A stretch of 64,000 nucleotides of DNA from a virus. Where the stretch lies: positions 1 through 64,000 of IMG/VR virus record IMGVR_UViG_3300028131_000005; one strand, 5' to 3'. A program made the position numbers and the translations under genes. Positions 8,725-64,000 of the stretch are shown in pieces. The notes under the pieces are model-generated. The model was not told where the DNA came from, did not search any database, and saw nothing but the letters and a program-made list of their open reading frames with translations. The number at the start of each line of letters is the position of its first letter. Within the stretch, counting starts at the first letter, position 1.

Positions 8725-8733
8725 GATATATAA
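8725..8733 (+). promoter_or_regulatory. GATATATAA late-promoter-like motif (example)
   Basis: GATATATA recurs just upstream of starts at 6457, 8725, 11230, 13587, 15768, 30158, 32296, 35451, 37772, 40426, 41314, 49699, 51774, 55138; reminiscent of the T4 late promoter TATAAATA. Confidence 0.65.
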
Positions 8734-42881: not shown

Positions 42882-44036
42882 ATGAGAATTAAACCAATAA
42901 ATGAATTCATGAATATTTTAGAAGCACAGCAGAATCTAAAATTAAATGTACCAAAAGATGTTAAAGACCTTCATAAACTTTTTAAGAAGAATAAAAGGGA
43001 ATTATACATTGTTGGAGGAGCTGTCCGAGATGCACTTCTTGGCCAAAAACCAAAAGACTTTGATTTAGCAACCGATGCTAAGCCAGAAGAGGTTATAAAA
43101 ATCTTAAAATCTGGAGGAGTTCCAACAATTGGAGAAGTTGGTCATCAGTTTGGAGTTGTAATTGCAAAAACACCAAGTTTTGCAGAAGGAATGGAAATTG
43201 CTACATTTAGAGAAGACATTGGAAAGGGTAGAAGACCTGATGCTGTAGAATACTCAACAATAGATAAAGATGTTCTTAGAAGAGACCTTACAATCAATGC
43301 GTTGTTTTACGATATTGAAAGTCAAAAAGTAGTTGACCTGGTAGGAGGAGTTGCAGATATTCAAAGTAACACAATTAGAACAGTTGGTCGAGCTCAAGAA
43401 AGATTTGATGAAGACCCATTAAGAAAATTAAGAGCATTGAGATTTGCAGGTAGAACAGGAAGTAAACTTGAAAAGAATACAGCAGAGGCTATAATTAGCG
43501 ATAACAGCTTAGAAGATATCAGTAGCGAAAGAATTAGAGACGAGTTTAAGAAATCTGTAGAAAGCGCAAAGTCTGCCAAGTTCTACTTAGATATGGTTTC
43601 GGAATTTAGTCTTTGGGGAGTAATGTTTCCCGGCTTGGAAATCAACAAAACATTTTTAGATACTAATAATTGGCTTTTGCAAATTACTCAGTTGTTTGGA
43701 GATAACCAAGAAGAACTTCTTAAAAAAGAATTAAATAAGATGTCTTTTTCAAATCAAGAAATAGATACAATTATATTCTTTAAAAGATTTTTAGAACTTA
43801 AACCAGAAACTGCGTTTCAATTAAGTAAGGAATGGAAAATTGCAAAATTAGATAAAAAATTACTTTTAGAATTTTCTAAGATAAATAAACTAGACCTTAA
43901 ATTAGTAAAGGCATTCTTTAAATACAAACCTTCTACGAATGGAGGTCAAATAATGAAAGAATTTGGTCTTAAAGGTTCTGCAATTGGAGATAAAATAAAA
44001 GAAATAGAAACAGAAAAATTTAAAAAATTACTATAA
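42882..44036 (+). CDS. cca: tRNA nucleotidyltransferase (class II, CCA-adding type) with an N-terminal leader extension
   Basis: VGGAVRD..LG..PKDFDLAT, EIATFR, RRDLTINAL, RFDEDPLR.LRALRF, SSERIRDE. Confidence 0.88.
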   Translation: MRIKPINEFMNILEAQQNLKLNVPKDVKDLHKLFKKNKRELYIVGGAVRDALLGQKPKDFDLATDAKPEEVIKILKSGGVPTIGEVGHQFGVVIAKTPSFAEGMEIATFREDIGKGRRPDAVEYSTIDKDVLRRDLTINALFYDIESQKVVDLVGGVADIQSNTIRTVGRAQERFDEDPLRKLRALRFAGRTGSKLEKNTAEAIISDNSLEDISSERIRDEFKKSVESAKSAKFYLDMVSEFSLWGVMFPGLEINKTFLDTNNWLLQITQLFGDNQEELLKKELNKMSFSNQEIDTIIFFKRFLELKPETAFQLSKEWKIAKLDKKLLLEFSKINKLDLKLVKAFFKYKPSTNGGQIMKEFGLKGSAIGDKIKEIETEKFKKLL

Positions 44037-49729: not shown

Positions 49730-51736
49730 ATGAGTAGAGTTTTAACGTCAGAGGCATTTATGTTAGTCAACGGTTTAGATATTCAACATTCAGGAGAATG
49801 GGAAGATTATTTAGAAATGAATGCACAGATAAATGGTTTAACAAGGGAAGAATATGCAGCATACTATTTAAACACACAATGGCAAATGCAGTGTATGGAA
49901 AGTATTGTTACTTTATTTGAAGCTAAAAAAGTTACAAGAAAGCAATTAGATAAGGCTCTTGGCGAAATCACAAGAATTACTCAAGATTTGAAAGCAACCG
50001 TTCTTTTATGGAAAGATGCTAAAGAAAATGGAAATGGTGCTAAAGAAAAAGAACATTTAGATACTTTAAAGAAATTAAATGCTGAGAAGAAAGAAGCAGA
50101 GAAAGAAGTAGAAGGGTTTATTAAAGGACTTGATAAGAATGTAGAATTAGACATGTCAGAATCTGTTAATGAAGGTTTTAGCGCAAAAGAAAAATCTTCG
50201 GTCGAAGCTATTACAGTAGCTGTTGAAAATTGGTTAGGTGATTATGACAACGTTGAAGATTTCAGAGAGTTTGCAACCCATTCTACACATAAAGATTCGA
50301 AAGAAAAGGAAAAGATAATAGCAAAAGCTTTATCTAAACTTCGAATCATGAATTTTGATGATGGTGAAAAAGAGCCACATGAGTATTTGATTAAGAAAAA
50401 ATCTAAAGAATTAACAAAACATATTGCAATGGAGCTTGGTCAAGCTTGGGAATCAAAAGTTAATGAAGGTACTGAAGTTACCAAAGATATGTGGGACAAA
50501 GAATGGCCACTTAAAAAAGTATTTGGAAAAGAATACGAGGCTAATTTCGCAAAAAGAGTAGAAGCAGCAATGTCAAAAGCTAAAGACGAAGAACAAGCTG
50601 AAGAATGGGCTTATAAAAACTTTAAACAACTTCCAAACCCTGCAAAAGGAATGACTATCGAAGAATCTGTATTTAACGAAGCTAAATTTGTGAGCCACTA
50701 TGCGCCTGGAGATGAATTTATGCGAAAAAAAATCAAAAGTATAGAATTGATTGATAAGAGAAAAGAAATTTATACTATAACATACGTAGATGGAGAAACT
50801 CAAAATGTTCAAGCAGGTACAGGAATGCAATTTCACGTAAAACGACTTTTTGATGAATCAATTGTGAATGAGAAAAAAGGAGGCCCATGGCCAGAACAAT
50901 TAGAAAAAGGTTTAACCCACTGGGGTCACAAAAAAGGAAGTCATGTCAGAGAACTTAAAACCCTTCCTTGTAGAATTGGAAGAAATGCAAATGATTATGG
51001 TGGACCTAACCATGCACAAGAACTTGCAGACCTTAATATGAAAGACCCAATGGTTAAGAAATTCTTTAAGCCTAAATTTAAAACTAGAGCAGATGGAAAT
51101 TATGTAAATGACTATGTTGAACTAATTCCTAAAAAGGGTTATTTATATAAATTATTTGTAGGTACTGGAGGATTTGAATATTTCTGTTTAGCGATTAAGC
51201 CAGGAGAGGTTTACATATTTAGAAAATATGACCGAGCATATAACCAATATGAATATTTCCAGCATGAAGAAGGTATGTCAACAAGATCAGGAGTATTTGA
51301 TTTTAAAAGACATAGAGAAGAAGAGCAATGGAAATGGAATAAACAAGAACCAGAAAGCGCTAGTCATATCGTAAAAGTTGGATGGGGAATCATGGATATT
51401 GGTCTAGAGTATACTCAATTAGAACTTCCATTCGAGCATCTAAAAACTTATGAAAGTTTTGTTACTGAAAAAAAAAACCTAACTAGTGAAATTAAAGACG
51501 CATTAGAAAATGGTTTAGTTAATGTTGGAGGAGACAGGGTTAAAGTTTCTGTTACAAATAAAAACCAATATAAAATTTATCCATACGACTCTCTTAGTGA
51601 TGGTGATTGGACAAAAGCAGATTTACGAGATAATTTCAAAGATTTAGTTGACGACCTTAATTTTGCATTTAATGGGAAATACGCATTTTCACCAATTGAT
51701 GTTACTAATAAAGAATGGATAATAGAATTACTCTAA
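49730..51736 (+). CDS. modular polyprotein-like ORF A (668 aa) with repeated ES(x)VNE linkers; candidate internal head protein
   Basis: Linkers ESVNEG (50159), ESKVNEG (50450), ESVFNEA (50663), ESIVNEK (50855), HLKTYESFVTEK (51437); GATATATAA at 49699. Confidence 0.7.
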   Translation: MSRVLTSEAFMLVNGLDIQHSGEWEDYLEMNAQINGLTREEYAAYYLNTQWQMQCMESIVTLFEAKKVTRKQLDKALGEITRITQDLKATVLLWKDAKENGNGAKEKEHLDTLKKLNAEKKEAEKEVEGFIKGLDKNVELDMSESVNEGFSAKEKSSVEAITVAVENWLGDYDNVEDFREFATHSTHKDSKEKEKIIAKALSKLRIMNFDDGEKEPHEYLIKKKSKELTKHIAMELGQAWESKVNEGTEVTKDMWDKEWPLKKVFGKEYEANFAKRVEAAMSKAKDEEQAEEWAYKNFKQLPNPAKGMTIEESVFNEAKFVSHYAPGDEFMRKKIKSIELIDKRKEIYTITYVDGETQNVQAGTGMQFHVKRLFDESIVNEKKGGPWPEQLEKGLTHWGHKKGSHVRELKTLPCRIGRNANDYGGPNHAQELADLNMKDPMVKKFFKPKFKTRADGNYVNDYVELIPKKGYLYKLFVGTGGFEYFCLAIKPGEVYIFRKYDRAYNQYEYFQHEEGMSTRSGVFDFKRHREEEQWKWNKQEPESASHIVKVGWGIMDIGLEYTQLELPFEHLKTYESFVTEKKNLTSEIKDALENGLVNVGGDRVKVSVTNKNQYKIYPYDSLSDGDWTKADLRDNFKDLVDDLNFAFNGKYAFSPIDVTNKEWIIELL

Positions 51737-52686: not shown

Positions 52687-54117
52687 GTGAGTAAACCTTT
52701 AGACCAATACACAGCACTAGATTCACAAGCCTTTGCAGATAATATTCATAGAGAGGCTGACGGATACTGGAAACCAATTTATCCAAGTGAATTGAATAGA
52801 CCCCTTAAACATGTCGAGGCGGACTATAACTACAAAGTTCTTACAGGAACTTTAGCAAATTATAGAATTTATCCATCTGCATTACCTCCTGGTTCTACAG
52901 GAGTTGCAGTAGAAGATTTTACTGGAGATGACAATAAATTCTTACAATTAAAATATGATGTCACAGAAGGTTGGTATTGGACTGTAGCACCCGCTGCCGG
53001 AGTTTCAACAGATGAAAACGTAAAAATTTCAGCAGCTGATACAACTTCAGGATATTTAGAAGATAAGATTGTTGCTGGAGCAAACGTCAATATTACTAAA
53101 CAAAATACAGGTGCTAATGAAACTATAGAGATATCAGCATATACACCGCCTGCAAGTATAGGAACATTAACAACCAATGGTATTATTTCAGGTCTTATTA
53201 CTAACTTTGCAGTTGGAACAAACCCTGAATTTGTAGATTGGAACGGAACATTAAGTCCGGCTTCAACTAATAATTCTGCTTTGCACATACCTTTCGATAT
53301 GAAAATAACGAAAGTATCTGTTAAGTATCTAGACACTACAGCAGCAAGTGTAGATGCAGCCTTCGATTATCAAATAAGTGTAGGTAAATTAACTTCACCG
53401 GGCGCTTCATCGGATAATGCAAATTATGTAGATTATGCTGGTGGAAATAACGTTTTAAATTTAACTTTTGCAAATACAGATGGAAATCATTTCTTTGAAG
53501 AGTCATCTGCAATTTCTCTTAGTGTAACAGCTGGAGATGTTTTAGTAGTTAGAGGTCATAAAGTCGCTGGTAATAATACAGGTGGAAGTAACGAAGAGGT
53601 AATGGTAACTGTAGAATATGAAAAAGACTACGATTATCTTTTATCTGGAGCAGCTGGACCTACTGGAGCAACAGGAGCAACTGGACCTGCTGGAGCAACA
53701 GGACCTGCTGGACCTGCTGGACCAACTGGACCAACTGGACCAGCCGGTTCTAGTTTAACAGGTACTTATACTTATACTCAAGCAGATTTACTTGCAAACA
53801 ATTTAGTAGATTTACTACCTGCACCTGCAGCAAATGAGTACTATAAATTTGAAATTACATTTGAATATCATTTTGGAACTACACCATATACTATATCCGG
53901 TTTCGGAAATGGAAATTTGTTGGTACCTAGTGCTAGGCTGGAATCTTTTGTTGGTGGAGTCATGTCAAGTGGAAGTGCAGATAAAGTCATAGGATTCGCT
54001 ACAGGTGCAAATAGCTTAGGTTCTGCTTTACAATTTCAATTGAAAACACCCTCTACACTGACTGGAGGAGATGGACAATTGATTATTAAAATATTTTACG
54101 ATATAATTACATTCTAA
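52687..54117 (+). CDS. structural / fibre-like protein with a collagen-like segment
   Basis: Ala/Gly/Thr-rich beta composition; (G-X-Y)12 stretch. Confidence 0.65.
   Translation: MSKPLDQYTALDSQAFADNIHREADGYWKPIYPSELNRPLKHVEADYNYKVLTGTLANYRIYPSALPPGSTGVAVEDFTGDDNKFLQLKYDVTEGWYWTVAPAAGVSTDENVKISAADTTSGYLEDKIVAGANVNITKQNTGANETIEISAYTPPASIGTLTTNGIISGLITNFAVGTNPEFVDWNGTLSPASTNNSALHIPFDMKITKVSVKYLDTTAASVDAAFDYQISVGKLTSPGASSDNANYVDYAGGNNVLNLTFANTDGNHFFEESSAISLSVTAGDVLVVRGHKVAGNNTGGSNEEVMVTVEYEKDYDYLLSGAAGPTGATGATGPAGATGPAGPAGPTGPTGPAGSSLTGTYTYTQADLLANNLVDLLPAPAANEYYKFEITFEYHFGTTPYTISGFGNGNLLVPSARLESFVGGVMSSGSADKVIGFATGANSLGSALQFQLKTPSTLTGGDGQLIIKIFYDIITF
53647..53754 (+). repeat. collagen-like 9-bp tandem repeat, (Gly-X-Y)x12
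   Basis: GGAGCAACA / GGACCTGCT / GGACCAACT units. Confidence 0.9.
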
Positions 54118-55169: not shown

Positions 55170-58100
55170 GTGATGAAAAACAAATTTATAAATGAAAACA
55201 CATATTTAGATGCGTCTAATGATTTTGTAAAAGAATTAGAAAAATCAAAAATTTTAGCAGATAATATAGATGTTTCAGTTGGCCCTTCTCAATGGGGTAA
55301 ACCAGGAGAACTTAGATTTAGAGACCATGTTACATTAAGAGCAGCTGGAATAGAAACTGAGTTATACGTAATACCTAGAGGAAGTTACACTGAATTCGAA
55401 TTATATACCGATACTGGATATGATACAGGAAGAGAAGTAAAAGTAGGTGATGCTAAGACTATTATTAAAGCAATGAAAAGATACGTTAATAAAATGAATG
55501 AATCGATGGTTAATGAAGCTAAAGTCAAACTTCCTAAAGGAATTGTAAAGCATAAAGATATTCCAACTTGGGCTGGGTGGGTTGCACAGCATTCTGATGG
55601 AGAATGGACTTGGTACGAATCTTACCCTTTTGTCGTTAACTTTAAAGACGGTGGAGGTGCTTGGAAACAAGAAGAATCAGAAGGATATCAAATTTACACT
55701 GGAGTAAAAACAGACCCTAAAAACTGGAAAGAAGGCCCATATCGAGTAAGATATGATGGAGATGTTGTACTGAAAGAATCTAGACATGTAATGACATTAG
55801 AATCATTTGTAAATGAAGGTAAAGTTGATTGGAATATCATCGCAAAAGAAGTAGCAAATAGATTGAAAGAAGGTTCATGGCCATGGGCAATTAAAAATGG
55901 CGTAGAAAATATAACCACTGAAAATATCGGAAGTGTTCTTATAAGCGGTGGATATACTACTACTTCTGGTGTCGAAAAAAATATAGGAGGTGTTATTGAT
56001 AAAGTATTAGCTCTTGTCAAAGAATCATTTGTAAATGAAGAATTGCCTACACAAGAAATAGACCCAAATGCTTTTCAAAATCCTTACAAATCAGATAAGA
56101 ATTTCTTTAAAAGAGGTTATAAAGATGAAGAGGTAATGGACGATGTTGTTAAGACTAGACCTGTAAAAATACAAGCAAGCCAATTAAAACCATCACAAGA
56201 TGCAGTATATTTAGGAAAAGCACTTGGCATGGCTATTGGTGGTGTTGAAGGCGGAAATCTTGAAGCTGTTATATCACAAGACAATAGAATCTTAGATGGT
56301 CATCATAGATGGGCAGCTACTATCTTTAATAACCCTAAAGCAAGGGTAGGAGGGGTTCAAGCAGAACTTAAAATTGGAGATTTAGTACCAGTTCTTAGAC
56401 AAGCAGGAGATGCACTTGGAAATAAAAGAGGTCTTCCACCAAAAGGAGGAGACCAAAATATTTTCAAAGCAACTTTAGATGATGTCAAAGACGCTATATA
56501 TGATGGTAAATATATGAATCCTCAGTTTTATAACAGAGATAAAGCAATTGCTTGGTTTGAAGAGCAAGGTGAAAAGAAAATACAAAGTGCATTGAATCTT
56601 TTACAAAGAGTTGGTCCTCCAGCTGGAGCTCCACCAAGAGCAGATATGCCTAAGATTGAACCAGAACAGGTTCAACAAGTTGCAAAAAAACTACAAGGTG
56701 GTGCAATTGATGTAAGAGCACCCTATGTAAAAGAAGAGTTGAATCATTTAACTTCTTTAGAAAATTTTATAGATGAAAAGAAGCCAGGTCCAGATCCTTA
56801 CATGACCGGTTTAAGTGATGGCGACGAAGAGGATAAAGAGGAGCAAATGAAAAAGCAGGCTGCCATGGACGATGACGATCCAAATGCATATAAAGATATG
56901 CCAGGAGACAAAGAGGCCAGAGAAAAAGGCGACATGAAGAAATCAAAACATACTAGTGCGTATCATAAAAAATTCAAGAAAGTTAAAAGTCTTGAAGAGT
57001 TTGCAAATGATTGGGCGGTTATTAAAGAGGGATATAATGCAGATGCAGTCGCTCAAAATGTTGTAGTTGCGCTAGACAGCGCTGCCCAATTCTTTCCAAG
57101 ATATCAACCTGCTGAAGCAGAAGCAGAAGTAAAAGATGTATTGAAGAAATATAAAAAACTAAAGGGTAAAAATGCTGAAAAAGCAGCTAAAGAGATAAGA
57201 AACTCTTTAGAAGATAGAGGTTTATTAGCAAATGATGTTTTACCATTAGATGTAGAAATAATCATTATGGATAACCTTAATGAATCTAAAGTACATGAAG
57301 CTGCAACTGATAGATTTTTACAATCAGCAGCAAGAAACTTAGCAAAACAGATGAGAGGAAAATCTGCTAGCAGGACAACTCTTAAGAATCGATTAAATTC
57401 AATGCCATTGGCAAACATGCTTAAACCAGATGAATTGGAAAAGATTATTGATTATGCAATGGAGGAAATGGGATTAGCTGAATCAGTAAATGAAGGTACA
57501 GATGATGTTGTGTTTACAATAGATGATGGAAATTTAGATAATAAATTTTTAATGACTAAAAGTCTTTCCAGAAATCTAGACTATCAACATGACAGCGGAG
57601 ACCAATATTATGTTTTACCAAAAAGAGATTTTGATAGATTAGAAGACTATGCAGATTCTCATGGTTATGATACAGACACTATTTATGTAATTGAAGAATC
57701 AGTAAATGAAGAGAAAGACAATCTTTATTTACAACTACATAGAAAATATGCTCAACAAATCAAAGGACTTAAGGCTAAAAAGATTAAGAAATTAACTGAC
57801 TTAGTAAGTGTACAAAGATGGTCGATGGAATATAGAGAAGACTATTTCGATATGGATAAAAAGAAAAAGAAAGAACTTTCAGCGGAATATGATGAGGAAA
57901 GAAGGCTATTTAAGAAATATATGGCTAAAGACTATTCAGTAATGCTACCTAAAGGAACAGAAAGTCTTAGAGAATCCATCAATGAGGGAGAAATATCTGA
58001 TACATTCGATCTTATTTTAGATACTATTAATAAGTATAAGAAAATAAAACCAGTAAAGCCATATTTTAATGCAGATAGAAGAATGGCATTAAAATCTAAA

Positions 58101-58598
58101 GGACTTGAGAATTTAGAAGATATCCGTGACCATTTAGATAAAACTCTAAAAGATTTTACAGTTACGTCAATTTCTAAAGGCGATAATTATCCTTCGCAAG
58201 AAAGTTTTAGAGTAATTAATAAAAATAGAAAAATTTATTCTATTGCAATGGACCTTAAGGAACCTGGAGAATTTGATATTACATACTCAGACTTAAATGA
58301 ATCAGTTAATGAAGAGAAAGACCAAACTAACGATAAAAGCAAAATAGACGGTGAAGGTATAGAAACTGGTCTTAAGAAAAAGGCTGATGAAACTGGAGTT
58401 CCAATTGGAATTTTAAGAGTTATTATGAGAAGAGGAATGGCAGCTTGGAAAAGTGGTCACAGACCTGGAACTAATTCAACTCAATGGGGTTATGCTAGAG
58501 TAAATTCATTCTTAACAAAGGGTGATGGAACTTGGGGCAAAGCTGACAAAGATATGGCTAAAGAGGTAAGAGATGGTGGTCACGATAAAAAACTATAA
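55170..58598 (+). CDS. modular polyprotein-like ORF B (1142 aa), about 11 modules including a ParB/Srx-like domain
   Basis: About 10 ES(x)VNE-type junctions; ParB/Srx-like LKPSQ...ILDGHHRWAA; C-terminal RRGMAAWKSGHRPG...QWGYARVNSF domain; GATATATAA at 55138. Confidence 0.75.
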   Translation: MMKNKFINENTYLDASNDFVKELEKSKILADNIDVSVGPSQWGKPGELRFRDHVTLRAAGIETELYVIPRGSYTEFELYTDTGYDTGREVKVGDAKTIIKAMKRYVNKMNESMVNEAKVKLPKGIVKHKDIPTWAGWVAQHSDGEWTWYESYPFVVNFKDGGGAWKQEESEGYQIYTGVKTDPKNWKEGPYRVRYDGDVVLKESRHVMTLESFVNEGKVDWNIIAKEVANRLKEGSWPWAIKNGVENITTENIGSVLISGGYTTTSGVEKNIGGVIDKVLALVKESFVNEELPTQEIDPNAFQNPYKSDKNFFKRGYKDEEVMDDVVKTRPVKIQASQLKPSQDAVYLGKALGMAIGGVEGGNLEAVISQDNRILDGHHRWAATIFNNPKARVGGVQAELKIGDLVPVLRQAGDALGNKRGLPPKGGDQNIFKATLDDVKDAIYDGKYMNPQFYNRDKAIAWFEEQGEKKIQSALNLLQRVGPPAGAPPRADMPKIEPEQVQQVAKKLQGGAIDVRAPYVKEELNHLTSLENFIDEKKPGPDPYMTGLSDGDEEDKEEQMKKQAAMDDDDPNAYKDMPGDKEAREKGDMKKSKHTSAYHKKFKKVKSLEEFANDWAVIKEGYNADAVAQNVVVALDSAAQFFPRYQPAEAEAEVKDVLKKYKKLKGKNAEKAAKEIRNSLEDRGLLANDVLPLDVEIIIMDNLNESKVHEAATDRFLQSAARNLAKQMRGKSASRTTLKNRLNSMPLANMLKPDELEKIIDYAMEEMGLAESVNEGTDDVVFTIDDGNLDNKFLMTKSLSRNLDYQHDSGDQYYVLPKRDFDRLEDYADSHGYDTDTIYVIEESVNEEKDNLYLQLHRKYAQQIKGLKAKKIKKLTDLVSVQRWSMEYREDYFDMDKKKKKELSAEYDEERRLFKKYMAKDYSVMLPKGTESLRESINEGEISDTFDLILDTINKYKKIKPVKPYFNADRRMALKSKGLENLEDIRDHLDKTLKDFTVTSISKGDNYPSQESFRVINKNRKIYSIAMDLKEPGEFDITYSDLNESVNEEKDQTNDKSKIDGEGIETGLKKKADETGVPIGILRVIMRRGMAAWKSGHRPGTNSTQWGYARVNSFLTKGDGTWGKADKDMAKEVRDGGHDKKL

Positions 58599-58608
58599 TA
58601 TATAAGTT

Positions 58609-59001
58609 ATGAAAAAAGTAGTATTATTTGAACAATTTGTTAATGAGAACATTAACAAAAGAATTCCGGAATTCGTAGAAAAAATTAAAAACGCGGAGAC
58701 TGAATTCGATGCAAAAAATAAAAGGTCAGAGATACTTAAATTAGCTAAGAAATCTGGCGGAGAAACTATCGACCAAGATACTAAATTTACCTATTCTCCA
58801 GATGGTGAAATATTTGTCGTATATAAATATGAAGACCAAGATGCAGTAGATGCCTGGTTATATAAGGGTGAAGGATCTGAAAAGTCTAAAGAAAATCTAG
58901 TAAAGTCTATGGTATATGCTGAAACTGGAAGACCCGGTTATAGAGTAATGTCAGATGGCAGTAAAACAAAGATAGGTAAACACGGAGAAACAAAATATTA
59001 A
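58609..59001 (+). CDS. protein with leader MKKVVLFEQFVNE (candidate internal head protein)
   Basis: Leader shared at DNA level with 59006 and 60102. Confidence 0.65.
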   Translation: MKKVVLFEQFVNENINKRIPEFVEKIKNAETEFDAKNKRSEILKLAKKSGGETIDQDTKFTYSPDGEIFVVYKYEDQDAVDAWLYKGEGSEKSKENLVKSMVYAETGRPGYRVMSDGSKTKIGKHGETKY

Positions 59002-59005
59002 GATT

Positions 59006-60097
59006 ATGAGCAAAGTAGTATTATTTGAAAAATTTATAGAAGAAAGGTCAAATGCCGGGAGAGCATGGCAAGGAAGATTAGATAACGTAGACGATTTAAT
59101 GGCCTGGTTATATAGAAAAGATATTCTTTCAACACAGGATAAGATGGAAAAAGACAAGATATTTACCGGATATTATAGATTCTATAATGACGGAGATACA
59201 CCAGATTGGTTAAGAATAGATCGAAATGAAACTCCTGAAGAAGCATTAGAAGACGCTCTTGACAACTTTATTAAGGAAATACTTGCTAAATATGCTGGTA
59301 AATATGATAGAAACACATTTAGATACGATACTCTGTTATCTCAATTAAATACTTTAAAAAGTAATTTGAAAGATACTGCTACTCCGCAGTTTTCTCAATA
59401 CGACGTACATTCTTTTTTATATTTCTATAATAAAAATCCTAAAACTGGAAATGCAAAGTTTGATAAATCAGTTGTGCAGTTAGAAAAATTATTTAAAAAA
59501 TTCGAAAAAACAGCAGATGCTCAAATTGAAAAATATCTTAAAGATAGTAAAAAGAAAGAAGAATTTGGAGGAATATCTACAAATCTTATTTTAGGTGCTA
59601 AAGTTGAGAAAATGCTAGATGCAGGAATATGGAATGACAAAAACAAAAAAGAATATAAAGATATAGTTGAAGTGGGTGATAGACTTTATCAAATGATTGA
59701 AGAAATTATTGAAGGTATAAAAATGGCTCAGAAACTAGAAGAAGGTAATTATGAAGCATTAGACAAATCTACTTTAATTATGGAAAAGTCAAGTGGTAGA
59801 GACTTTATGAATTATGTGTTAGCACATAAAAAAGGAACAAGTGCTTTCAAACAATTTAAAATTTCAGATGAACATAGAAAAGAAATAATAGATATGTGTA
59901 TTGAAGTTATGGATGAAGTAGGAGATAAAGGTTCTTCTGTTCTTGGAAGCGGCTTATATATTAATGATGAAAAATTCTTAAGAGCATATTCACAAGGAAA
60001 TGTAGGACCTGAAAGAATTTACAATAAGGTTGAAGCATTTTTAAATAAAAACTATCCTAAATTAGATGTAAGAGTATCTAAAGGAAATATGGACTAA
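59006..60097 (+). CDS. two-module protein with leader MSKVVLFEKFIEE
   Basis: Leader as above; internal KLEE...LIMEK junction; YYRFYNDGD motif. Confidence 0.65.
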   Translation: MSKVVLFEKFIEERSNAGRAWQGRLDNVDDLMAWLYRKDILSTQDKMEKDKIFTGYYRFYNDGDTPDWLRIDRNETPEEALEDALDNFIKEILAKYAGKYDRNTFRYDTLLSQLNTLKSNLKDTATPQFSQYDVHSFLYFYNKNPKTGNAKFDKSVVQLEKLFKKFEKTADAQIEKYLKDSKKKEEFGGISTNLILGAKVEKMLDAGIWNDKNKKEYKDIVEVGDRLYQMIEEIIEGIKMAQKLEEGNYEALDKSTLIMEKSSGRDFMNYVLAHKKGTSAFKQFKISDEHRKEIIDMCIEVMDEVGDKGSSVLGSGLYINDEKFLRAYSQGNVGPERIYNKVEAFLNKNYPKLDVRVSKGNMD

Positions 60098-60101
60098 GAT
60101 T

Positions 60102-60683
60102 ATGAAAAAAGTAGTATTATTTGAACAATTTATAAAAGAAGCATCTAGGGGTAAATGGACTAAAATCGATCCTAAAAAAGATAAGGACCTAGATGACCAT
60201 TTTTACGATTTAATAAATGTTGCATATGCTGAAATAGGAGGCCATGTTAAAATCAATAAACCAGAAGACGTATTTGCTGATAAAGACTGGACTTTTTGGA
60301 GAGGAATAGACCTTCATGGTTCTCCAGACTTAGACCTTATTATTTGGGGTAAAGATACCAAGTATGGCGTTAAATTTGCAGGAGTCGGTCATGATGGTGA
60401 AAGAGACAGCAGAAAAGAATACTTAAATCATAAAGGCAGCGACCTTAAAAAACTAGGATATTATGGTGAAGTCTCTGGTAAACTAGCAGAAATTTTACTA
60501 ATTAAATATGGAGTTCCTGCAGTATCTGATGAAGCAGAAGTAGAAGCTGCTATTGGTGGTAAAAATGTCGAATGGCATGGACAACATCCTAAAGATAATA
60601 CTATTCCTGGAAATGGATGGTACAGCAGAAAAATAGGAGGTCAGATGCATACTAAGATACTTGTAGGTAGACCTAAAATATAA
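60102..60683 (+). CDS. protein with leader MKKVVLFEQFIKE (possible GNAT-like fold)
   Basis: Leader; YDLI..AYAEIGG...K.TKYG.K..G.GHDG...YSRKIGG..HTK..VG.P. Confidence 0.6.
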   Translation: MKKVVLFEQFIKEASRGKWTKIDPKKDKDLDDHFYDLINVAYAEIGGHVKINKPEDVFADKDWTFWRGIDLHGSPDLDLIIWGKDTKYGVKFAGVGHDGERDSRKEYLNHKGSDLKKLGYYGEVSGKLAEILLIKYGVPAVSDEAEVEAAIGGKNVEWHGQHPKDNTIPGNGWYSRKIGGQMHTKILVGRPKI

Positions 60684-62694: not shown

Positions 62695-64000
62695 TCAATT
62701 AACTACTATCTTCTGAATTACAATGTTTTCTTTTATAATCATATAGATTCCAGTAGAAAGTTTATCAGGATTAACCTCTTGACCCATCATGTTTATTATT
62801 TTAAGATTTTCTTCTTTAATAGTCTTTAAAACATTAGCCGGAGTACCTTCTCCATTAGATATGATTATTGCACTTGCATCTGAGTTTGAATCTATTTGAG
62901 CATCTGGTTTAGATATGATAATGACGTCATCTATTGGTGATATTCCACCTTGTGAATTTTCAATATCTAAGTTTCTTTGAACTTGAGAAACTGCGTATCC
63001 TGCATTTAATCTTCCAGCTCCCATTTGCCCTATATAATCAGGGTTTAAATCGTCTATATTTCTTGCAGTGAATCTTAGTATACTATCAATTTCTTCATTA
63101 GTTATTGTAGGGTCTAAAGAAAGCATAAGACCAACTGTACCTGTAACCATAGGAGCAGCATAAGAAGTTCCGCTTCCGAATAGATACCAGTTAGGTGCTG
63201 CAGATAAAGGTACTACATAACCAGGAGCCATTAAATCTACACTTGCATTATGTTGGTGAGTTCCACCACTTCCATAAGTATTCCAGTGTTTATCATCAGC
63301 ACCAACACTAGATACTGCGAATACATTTTCGAATGCTGCTGGGTAAACAAGAGCTTCAGAACCTCCACATGTTGAACCATTTCCGGCAGCTGCAACTAAA
63401 AATGTACCATTATCATATATTTCATTCATTGCGTCTTGAATATATTGATTGAACGTACATCCGCTAGTCCAACTCATATTTATAACTCTGTAACCTGAAT
63501 ATGAAGCTTCTAGAACTTCATTGTAGTTCATTCTATAAAGTGCAAGTTTAGAATTGTAACCATGGCTGGCAAGTCCTAAACCATTGGCATTAAGTGGGTT
63601 ATTGGTATTTCCAGCAGCAAGAATAGCAACTGCAGTACCATGACCTTGACTAGATGTATTTGTGTTATCATAATGAACTACCTTTCCTACAATTTCTTCG
63701 TGATTTACAAAGTAATTTTGATCAGATATTGCAACAGTTGCAGAATCTCCTTTTGAGAAATTCCAAGCCTGCGCAGCGTTTGTTAATTTTAAAGGCCAGT
63801 GAGACCAATATCCAGGATCTGTTGGTGCTACTCCGTAATTATTAAATACCCCATAATCTATAGGTTCTTCTAATGATTTGTAATTAGGTCCAAATTCAAC
63901 TCCTTTGATTCCTTGCATTTCTACCATACTTACATAAAGGTCATTTACGTCACAGTCACATTTAATTTCATAAACATTTAGAAGTCTTTCATTTCTAGAT
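62695..64000 (-). CDS. subtilisin-like (S8) serine protease with T9SS-type C-terminal sorting domain; 5' end lies beyond the window
   Basis: VAISD, GHGTAVA, AAAGN, GTSYAAPMV; C-terminus KIINMMGQEV....LSTGIYMI....QKIVVN; frame stays open from 63927 to 64000. Confidence 0.85.
   Translation of the reverse strand, partial: SRNERLLNVYEIKCDCDVNDLYVSMVEMQGIKGVEFGPNYKSLEEPIDYGVFNNYGVAPTDPGYWSHWPLKLTNAAQAWNFSKGDSATVAISDQNYFVNHEEIVGKVVHYDNTNTSSQGHGTAVAILAAGNTNNPLNANGLGLASHGYNSKLALYRMNYNEVLEASYSGYRVINMSWTSGCTFNQYIQDAMNEIYDNGTFLVAAAGNGSTCGGSEALVYPAAFENVFAVSSVGADDKHWNTYGSGGTHQHNASVDLMAPGYVVPLSAAPNWYLFGSGTSYAAPMVTGTVGLMLSLDPTITNEEIDSILRFTARNIDDLNPDYIGQMGAGRLNAGYAVSQVQRNLDIENSQGGISPIDDVIIISKPDAQIDSNSDASAIIISNGEGTPANVLKTIKEENLKIINMMGQEVNPDKLSTGIYMIIKENIVIQKIVVN

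Follow-up and report, generated by a model that had tools for sequence, protein, structure and literature searches.

A modular polyprotein with motifs resembling the T4 capsid-targeting sequence at its junctions in an uncultured jumbo myovirus

The DNA analysed here (the window) covers the first 64 kb of a viral contig from IMG/VR, record IMGVR_UViG_3300028131_000005 (G000 in our numbering), which has a length of 78.9 kb. The completeness of the contig is put at 31% by CheckV, which implies a genome of roughly 250 kb. Our subject is one intact open reading frame (ORF) in the window, for a 668-residue protein that we call polyprotein A (P0001; Table 1), in which blocks of unrelated sequence are separated by a repeated motif resembling the capsid-targeting sequence (CTS) of phage T4. 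An earlier note, made from the sequence of this DNA, had proposed that the chain is packaged into the virion and cut there into several small effectors.

The contig encodes a T4-type clamp loader, large terminase, tail sheath, DNA ligase and NAMPT. The closest terminase is that of an uncultured 462-kb phage (45% identity), followed at about 33% by those of the jumbo Tenacibaculum phages PTm1/PTm5 and Sphingomonas phage PAU; the source of polyprotein A is an uncultured jumbo myovirus of the T4 superfamily. No cultured homolog was found when the protein (by tblastn) and 20 kb of DNA (by megablast) were compared with 50,697 phage records.

Junctions and modules of polyprotein A

The protein is divided by six junctions, which follow the pattern (E)ES(x)V(x)N/T-E and all lie in the ORF at the positions that the earlier note had given (J1 to J6 in Table 1; here and below an arrow marks a cut site, predicted for the present proteins). 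The first junction, ..TLFE↓A, does not fit the earlier description of the linkers as ES(x)VNE. Cuts after each junction Glu would give seven blocks of 64, 84, 98, 71, 64, 199 and 88 residues. The junction pattern as written in that note occurs 6 times in polyprotein A, compared with a mean of 0.04 (maximum 2) in 20,000 shuffles of the protein. A stricter pattern, ES-x?-hydrophobic-x?-[NT]E, is found 5 times in polyprotein A and 7 times in a second ORF at 55170-58598; the remaining contig ORFs of at least 45 amino acids, 33,122 residues in total, contain it a single time.

In T4, the prohead protease gp21 cuts after Glu in L/I-x-E. All six junctions match V/L/F-x-E in a sequence-level test, with a hydrophobic residue at P3 and Glu at P1, and in all relatives the first junction reads L/I-x-E↓(G/A/S/K)KKVT, which is the canonical T4 form. 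Across 150 distinct sites in the family, the consensus is L/I at P7, E at P6 and P5, S at P4, V/L/I at P3, N/T at P2, E at P1 and A/S/K/G at P1', where P3 is V/L/I/F/M by construction because the search selected only hydrophobic-[NT]-E. Judged by sequence, the consensus fits the gp21 rule.

The T4 tags, as read from AF158101, are MKTYQEFIAE↓A in IPII and IPIII (IP, internal protein) and MKTFKEF...ITE↓A in IPI; MKTYQEFIAE has been named as the CTS (bioRxiv 10.1101/2021.01.19.427310). The last junction of polyprotein A, LKTYESFVTE, is identical to it at 5/10 positions, with mostly conservative changes at the remaining five. The likeness noticed earlier is thus genuine, although 'nearly identical' overstated its degree. 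The N-terminus of polyprotein A, MSRVLTSEAFMLVNG, is also tag-like, with Gly at the place of the scissile Glu; the tag-like sequences that do end in Glu are internal, in six places. At the DNA level, a 12-nucleotide pair, GTTAATGAAGGT, lies around module A3 (copies at 50165-50176 and 50459-50470) and one 15-nucleotide pair links two junctions (49898/51452); no other DNA repeats at the junctions rise above the expectation from the peptide motif and AT-rich codon use. The linker and tag strings were not found in the literature searched.

As the earlier note had said, the blocks have no mutual similarity: BLASTP of each against all contig ORFs returned only self-matches (E<=0.05). The AlphaFold2 model of the full chain, built on a 27-sequence alignment, has a mean predicted local distance difference test score (pLDDT) of 63 and a predicted template modelling score (pTM) of 0.33, which argues that there is no integrated fold, and it contains no inter-domain packing. 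Its main low-confidence stretches (residues 56-65, 137-159, 239-246, 312-323, 367-410 and 536-584) each hold a junction (6/6), so the model has the appearance that had been anticipated: the domains stand apart, and the linkers of low confidence fall exactly at the junctions. Modules A2, A4, A5, A6 and A7 are modelled as confident separate domains. When folded alone, A6 reaches a pLDDT of 75 and a pTM of 0.73, with its tail (183-199, the junction) disordered. The modules measure 7.5-23.5 kDa (from A1 to A7 about 7.5, 9.5, 11, 8, 7.5, 23.5 and 10 kDa), within the size range of the T4 internal proteins.

An exhaustive HMMER scan of 1.84 billion representative proteins yielded only 41 relatives. 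Homology among these is block-wise; the order and number of blocks differ, and block ends coincide with the motif. A copy 99% identical to polyprotein A lies on another metagenome contig (L002), and one 71% identical lies in conserved synteny (L003). The protein P0002 (570 amino acids, 92% identical) is polyprotein A minus exactly the 98 residues of A3. The L003 homolog also lacks A3 and has an unrelated block in the place of A5, between the same junction types; its flanking genes are in the same order and roughly 90% identical by eye. At the distant loci L004 and L006 only A1-A2 are retained, and the other blocks that follow are joined by LKESMNE↓, VKESVNE↓ and MKNLQTLESFINE↓. Searching block by block, which the earlier note had recommended, uncovered the different neighbours it foresaw, as well as stand-alone and two-block homologs with a CTS-like tag at the N-terminus. 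Some internal linkers read M-K-N-L-x-T-L-E-S-F-(V/I)-N-E, start Met included, which suggests the fusion of formerly separate tagged genes. Among the nearest cultured or assembled phages by terminase (PTm1, LR756500, PAU, pT24 and MaF61), the DNA pattern for ESVNE occurs 0-4 times per genome, with no sign of a polyprotein.

Each module has its own distribution. A1 is N-terminal in 14 of 15 representative homologs and internal in P0007; its start in relatives, MK.LLTLEA.MLVNG, resembles the internal linker MKNLLTLESFVNE minus the final Glu. A2 is present in 21 representatives, sometimes far from A1, for example after YESITE↓ in P0036. Homologs of A3 elsewhere amount to two copies, both within the 972-residue polyprotein P0031. 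The most mobile block is A4, found in 24 representatives at residue 15 to 487 of proteins 78-1008 residues long; in nearly all cases it is preceded by ..ES(x)VNE↓ and ends in ..MTIEES(x)VNE↓, and in P0022 (MKLHSFTQFINE↓) and P0035 it stands directly behind the N-terminal tag. A distant A4 relative, P0040 (579 residues), combines a DUF192 domain (E 3e-21) with a nucleotidyltransferase-like GGFKPPH motif at its N-terminus. Since its A4-like block borders on no junction of the ES(x)VNE type, A4 is not confined to the grammar of the polyproteins.

A5 makes up the whole of a 55-residue protein, P0030. A6 has 54 invariant columns across 6 sequences and occurs in four representatives, where it is preceded by ESIMNE↓, ESVVNE↓, MLFEEFVNE↓ (P0011) or MEESIDE↓ (P0015) and followed by KTYESFVTE↓, STFKSFQLNE↓ or PTFEKFINE↓. 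A stand-alone homolog of A7, P0037, has 124 residues and starts with MKKLVNTFNEFVNE↓. P0001 belongs to no Pfam or PHROG family, Foldseek of the full model against the PDB gave nothing at E<=0.001, the A6 model had no solved-fold match in a wide VIA-align search (best Z 2.7), and ESM Atlas returned no usable feature match, with structural TM<=0.40. Pfam on ten relatives detected only DUF3008 and DUF192, in two distant ones.

Tagged single genes, head genes of relatives and the surrounding locus

The motif is also found at the start of separate genes. Behind an N-terminal tag of the form MK..F.EFVNE, some blocks of polyprotein A are encoded as short separate proteins; MKKIKLFEEFLNE is also a tag sequence. 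On the contig, at least 8 unrelated ORFs start MK(x)(I/V)KLFE(E/Q)F(L/V/I)(N/E)E, among them genes just downstream of a sister polyprotein, B, whose last block is DUF5824 (PF19141, E 6.5e-14). The leaders of the genes at 58609 and 59006 are MKKVVLFEQFVNE and MSKVVLFEKFIEE. The linker motif thus doubles as the N-terminal tag of single-module proteins. In a 205-kb relative (G001), with a terminase that shares only about 30% identity with those of T4-like phages, at least 10 ORFs are tagged in the same way; one of them, a 136-residue protein at 176438-176848 (within L029), starts with MKTYEEFINE↓A, identical at 8/10 positions to the tag of T4 IPII/IPIII, MKTYQEFIAE↓A. Beyond the window, three tandem leader-tagged paralogs of about 300-336 residues lie at G000 72520-75455 (L001 10520-13455), with no Pfam match at E<=0.01.

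Head genes can be read in relatives. A Peptidase_S77 domain (PF03420, the family of T4 gp21) scores above the Pfam cut-off in three of them (G001, G002 and G003), of which G003 is also the source of the L003 homolog (71%, same synteny). T4 gp21 aligns with the G003 protease at 27% identity over 144 residues (E 3e-10), and its His85 and Ser140 are conserved there. In the ORFs at L009 1423-3306 (G003, 627 residues) and L008 1423-3321 (G001), a C-terminal fusion of about 430 residues includes an acidic stretch as well as units of Y(V/I)AEKTDQ.I.Y.E that recur along it, and the fusion contains AESINE↓N; from its sequence, a gp21-type protease is apparently joined to a scaffold-like region in these phages. 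In T4, genes 21 and 22 are separate.

The head genes of the relatives otherwise follow the T4 order: portal, small core protein, protease/scaffold, and capsid protein of the gp23 family (PF07068). The gp67/68-like small core protein starts with MKIKTFNQFITE↓A. The N-terminal region of the capsid protein contains ..KMANLINE↓AEIR, and T4 gp23 is cut at FLTE↓AEIG. We considered whether ..LINE↓AEI is positionally homologous to FLTE↓AEI; BLASTP aligns the two proteins only from residues 94/93, and there is a difference of about 46 residues in spacing. What can be claimed is therefore a striking resemblance of a local kind. The ORF directly after the capsid gene (L012 2777-3802 and L010 2759-3622) has the tag-like starts MKRFYLKENLKTYSEFTSLNE↓ and MKKTLILNEKVLTISEWLTE↓; its product is highly charged and is possibly a tag-carrying core or decoration protein.

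Around polyprotein A, collagen-repeat (G-x-y) tail-fibre-like proteins are encoded just downstream of the polyprotein locus, at 52687-54117 in the window and at L006 12898-17260, and in this phage and its relatives their C-terminal domains and repeat number vary. The octamer ATATATAA upstream of polyprotein A has 30 copies on the plus strand of the contig versus 4 on the minus strand, and is intergenic; 25/30 of the plus-strand copies lie 11-40 nucleotides ahead of an ORF start (examples are at 8726, 13588, 15769, 49700, 55139 and 58598). It precedes polyprotein B and leader-tagged genes. Because a gene resembling CCA-adding enzymes (42882) and an amidase gene (39112) also have upstream copies, the octamer is not specific to structural genes; its pattern of occurrence makes it a candidate promoter element, and the copy before the CCA-adding-enzyme-like gene keeps a 'late' promoter from being established. 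The product of that gene, at 42882-44036 on the plus strand, belongs to the tRNA nucleotidyltransferase / poly(A) polymerase family (PF01743, E 7e-34; PF12627), and its N-terminus, MRIKPINE↓F, bears a loose resemblance to the tag.

A subtilisin-family protease of 494 residues (PF00082, E 6e-30) is encoded on the minus strand at 62695-63927, continuing to G000 64179 (L001 695-2179), and is among the few minus-strand genes. Its N-terminus is signal-peptide-like. At the C-terminus, the tail has the look of a sorting domain for Bacteroidota type-IX secretion, but Pfam detected none, so as a hint at the host it is no more than an impression.

Table 1. Positions in the window of polyprotein A, its modules and junctions, and associated features (the last row refers to the full contig, G000)
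Feature	Coordinates	Strand	Remarks
Promoter-like octamer ATATATAA	49700..49707	+	30 nucleotides before the polyprotein A start codon
Polyprotein A (P0001), 668 residues, intact ORF	49730..51736	+	ORF call; no Pfam/PHROG family
Module A1, residues 1-64	49730..49921	+	ends in J1
Junction J1, ESIVTLFE↓A	49898-49921	+	ends A1
Module A2, residues 65-148, helical hairpin	49922..50173	+	AlphaFold2 pLDDT ~90 over 70-135
Junction J2, SESVNE↓G	50159-50173	+	ends A2
Module A3, residues 149-246	50174..50467	+	bracketed by exact 12-nucleotide direct repeat GTTAATGAAGGT
Junction J3, ESKVNE↓G	50450-50467	+	ends A3
Module A4, residues 247-317, helical	50468..50680	+	AlphaFold2 pLDDT ~80
Junction J4, EESVFNE↓A	50663-50680	+	ends A4
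Module A5, residues 318-381, small beta sheet	50681..50872	+	AlphaFold2 strands 333-361, pLDDT ~80
Junction J5, DESIVNE↓K	50855-50872	+	ends A5
Module A6, residues 382-580, alpha/beta	50873..51469	+	AlphaFold2 pLDDT ~80 in full chain
Junction J6, HLKTYESFVTE↓K	from 51437 (LKTYESFVTE↓K 51440-51469; ESFVTE at 51452)	+	ends A6
Module A7, residues 581-668, alpha/beta, C-terminal block	51470..51733	+	AlphaFold2 pLDDT ~75
Sister polyprotein B, 1142 residues	55170..58598	+	7 ES(x)VNE junctions; N-terminal tag MKNKFINE↓
Three adjacent genes (58609, 59006, 60102)	58609..60683	+	shared leader read in 58609 and 59006
Further leader-tagged genes	G000 71562-76745 (L001)

Interpretation and comparison with known systems

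The reading that we favour, with a probability of about 0.6, is that polyprotein A is loaded into the capsid as one chain, which the prohead protease then cuts after Glu to give about seven proteins. The lineage would have kept the T4 tag and gp21 system and joined tagged cargo genes in frame, turning tags into linkers. Polyprotein A would then be made as one piece and drawn into the core of the assembling prohead, the loading signals being the conserved A1-A2 head and the internal CTS-like amphipathic linkers; from their sequences, the N-terminus of A1 may be an uncleaved targeting helix and A1-A2 a common loader. A gp21-type (Peptidase S77) protease would cut after the Glu of hydrophobic (P3)-N/T (P2)-E (P1), before A/S/G/K, at the six exposed, disordered junctions, and about seven proteins, unrelated to one another and 7.5-23.5 kDa in size, would be released and would remain inside the head. 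By analogy with T4's internal proteins and with Alt, the released modules would enter the host with the DNA. The whole sequence of loading, cutting, head retention, ejection and effector role is one that we infer from T4, and the same analogy underlies the earlier proposal that the chain is in the virion, is cut and gives rise to effectors.

Several observations weigh against this reading. The contig itself, being a 31% complete fragment, has no protease, portal or capsid gene, so the link to the protease comes from relatives, and the packaging and cutting of polyprotein A are drawn from T4. The gene sits among tail-fibre-like genes and not among head genes; in T4, the genes for internal proteins are likewise scattered. 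Read from its sequence, the N-terminus of polyprotein A is not a cleavable CTS, since it ends in VNG without Glu. The modules are acidic to neutral (pI 4.2-7.0 in 6/7, and 8.6 in A6). No known fold or family was found for any module, which leaves the term 'effector' without direct support, and the count of 0-4 ESVNE patterns in the cultured distant relatives PTm1, PAU, pT24 and MaF61 means that no model phage is known with such a system.

Some of these facts would suit a different role in the head. Polyprotein A could be a core or scaffold assembly protein, chopped like T4 gp22, gp67 and gp68, with pieces that leave the capsid and have no role in the host. The conservation of A1-A2, the long helical hairpin of A2 and the acidic, scaffold-like character of most modules would agree with this, as would the fate of the T4 core proteins, which are cut by gp21 at many L/I-x-E sites and expelled. 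We nevertheless judge this role unlikely. In T4, these assembly proteins are conserved and their fragments are lost from the head, whereas polyprotein A has changing modules and folded domains: module content differs between phages whose flanks are about 90% identical by eye, which would be unexpected for a scaffold, and several modules are compact alpha/beta units of 7-23 kDa, the size of the T4 internal proteins retained in the head. Relatives also already possess the protease-scaffold fusion and the gp67/68-like core protein, which bears the tag and is encoded between portal and protease.

Other explanations dispense with the prohead protease. The protein could remain uncleaved, as beads on a string inside or outside the virion, with ES(x)VNE serving as a favoured linker or recombination joint; the gene adjoins collagen-like fibre genes, fibres and adhesins also show shuffling of domains bounded by linkers, and the A3 indel is flanked by the 12-nucleotide repeat. 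It is hard to see, on that account, why the motif should be the N-terminal tag of many unrelated single-domain proteins, or why relatives should have it both at the capsid protein's N-terminus and within their core and scaffold proteins. The match to the T4 CTS and gp21 site, with an invariant P1 Glu and a small P1', and the AlphaFold2 model without inter-domain packing likewise make it quite improbable. Alternatively, the junctions could be processed in the cytoplasm by a host protease or another phage protease, making polyprotein A a plain expression polyprotein. The gp21 homolog is not tied to the junctions directly, and the contig does encode the subtilisin-family enzyme (PF00082). That enzyme, however, has a signal-peptide-like N-terminus and is encoded on the opposite strand and in a different gene block, and the likeness to the T4 CTS together with the motif on head proteins of relatives points to the head pathway, so we regard cytoplasmic processing as very unlikely.

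If polyprotein A is indeed loaded and cut, its nearest known counterpart is the T4 system of CTS, internal proteins and Alt. The amphipathic tag is of the same type (MKTYQEFIAE↓A in T4, LKTYESFVTE↓K here and MKTYEEFINE↓A in a relative), the cut follows Glu with a hydrophobic P3 (here predicted from the sequence), the cargos are unrelated, fast-changing and alike only in the tag, and relatives have the gp21-type protease and head-gene order. The differences are also clear. In T4, each cargo has its own gene and one N-terminal tag that is cut once, whereas here up to seven cargos are fused and the tags are internal linkers. The P2 position in the polyprotein A family is nearly always N or T, whereas the T4 rule allows any residue. 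Two features that define the T4 class are absent: T4 internal proteins have a cleavable N-terminal tag (10-20 residues ending in Glu), in whose place polyprotein A has a look-alike without Glu, and they are small, highly basic and DNA-associated when mature, whereas the modules fit in size but not in charge.

Two further systems offer partial parallels. Polyvalent proteins (Iyer, Burroughs, Anand, de Souza and Aravind 2017, as presented in PMC9503650) combine unrelated modules in one chain and are thought to be packaged in the virion and delivered with the DNA. Polyprotein A is similar in having several unrelated modules per chain, and its association with the virion would be a second likeness. 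The polyvalent proteins described in that source, however, have known enzymatic domains (ART, peptidases, methylases) and often MuF/portal-associated anchors; none of these enzymatic or MuF domains was detected in polyprotein A and ten relatives by Pfam, or in P0001 by PHROG, and the blocks of polyprotein A are small and separated by a repeated motif like that of the prohead protease and CTS. The inner-body and ejection proteins of phiKZ, 201phi2-1 and SPN3US also come from jumbo myoviruses, where cleavage after Glu affects many of the proteins inside the head, some of them at several sites. There the motif is S/A/G-x-E or A-x-E, propeptides exceed 100 residues, the protease is gp175/gp245 and the lineage is different, and multiple sites serve to clear propeptides rather than to separate unrelated cargos. 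By comparison, P3 is V, F or L at the six junctions of polyprotein A, and the protease of its relatives is of the T4 type (PF03420).

More tentatively, the linker may have two jobs, acting as a capsid-loading and cut signal as a peptide and, through micro-homology of DNA or peptide, as a joint for swapping modules in frame; we see this as possible rather than probable. If true, the lineage would run a cassette system for injected proteins, comparable to polymorphic toxin loci, in which the A1-A2 loader carries a changing string of small host-takeover or anti-defence proteins that are not yet recognisable as such.

Loading and cutting of polyprotein A would mean that a very distant jumbo branch, probably one that infects Bacteroidota, has conserved the capsid-targeting and prohead-protease system of T4 and has extended it, with 'one tag, one cargo' giving way there to 'one chain, many cargos'. 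The exact gains and losses of modules in near-identical phages would then illustrate cleanly how domains are shuffled in frame at a defined joint. CTS fusions have already been used to engineer T4, and polyprotein A would serve as a natural template where a single gene is to supply several proteins for packing into a phage head. Dozens of small 'dark' families would be marked as likely virion-delivered and early-acting, and they would be a promising place to look for new anti-defence functions.

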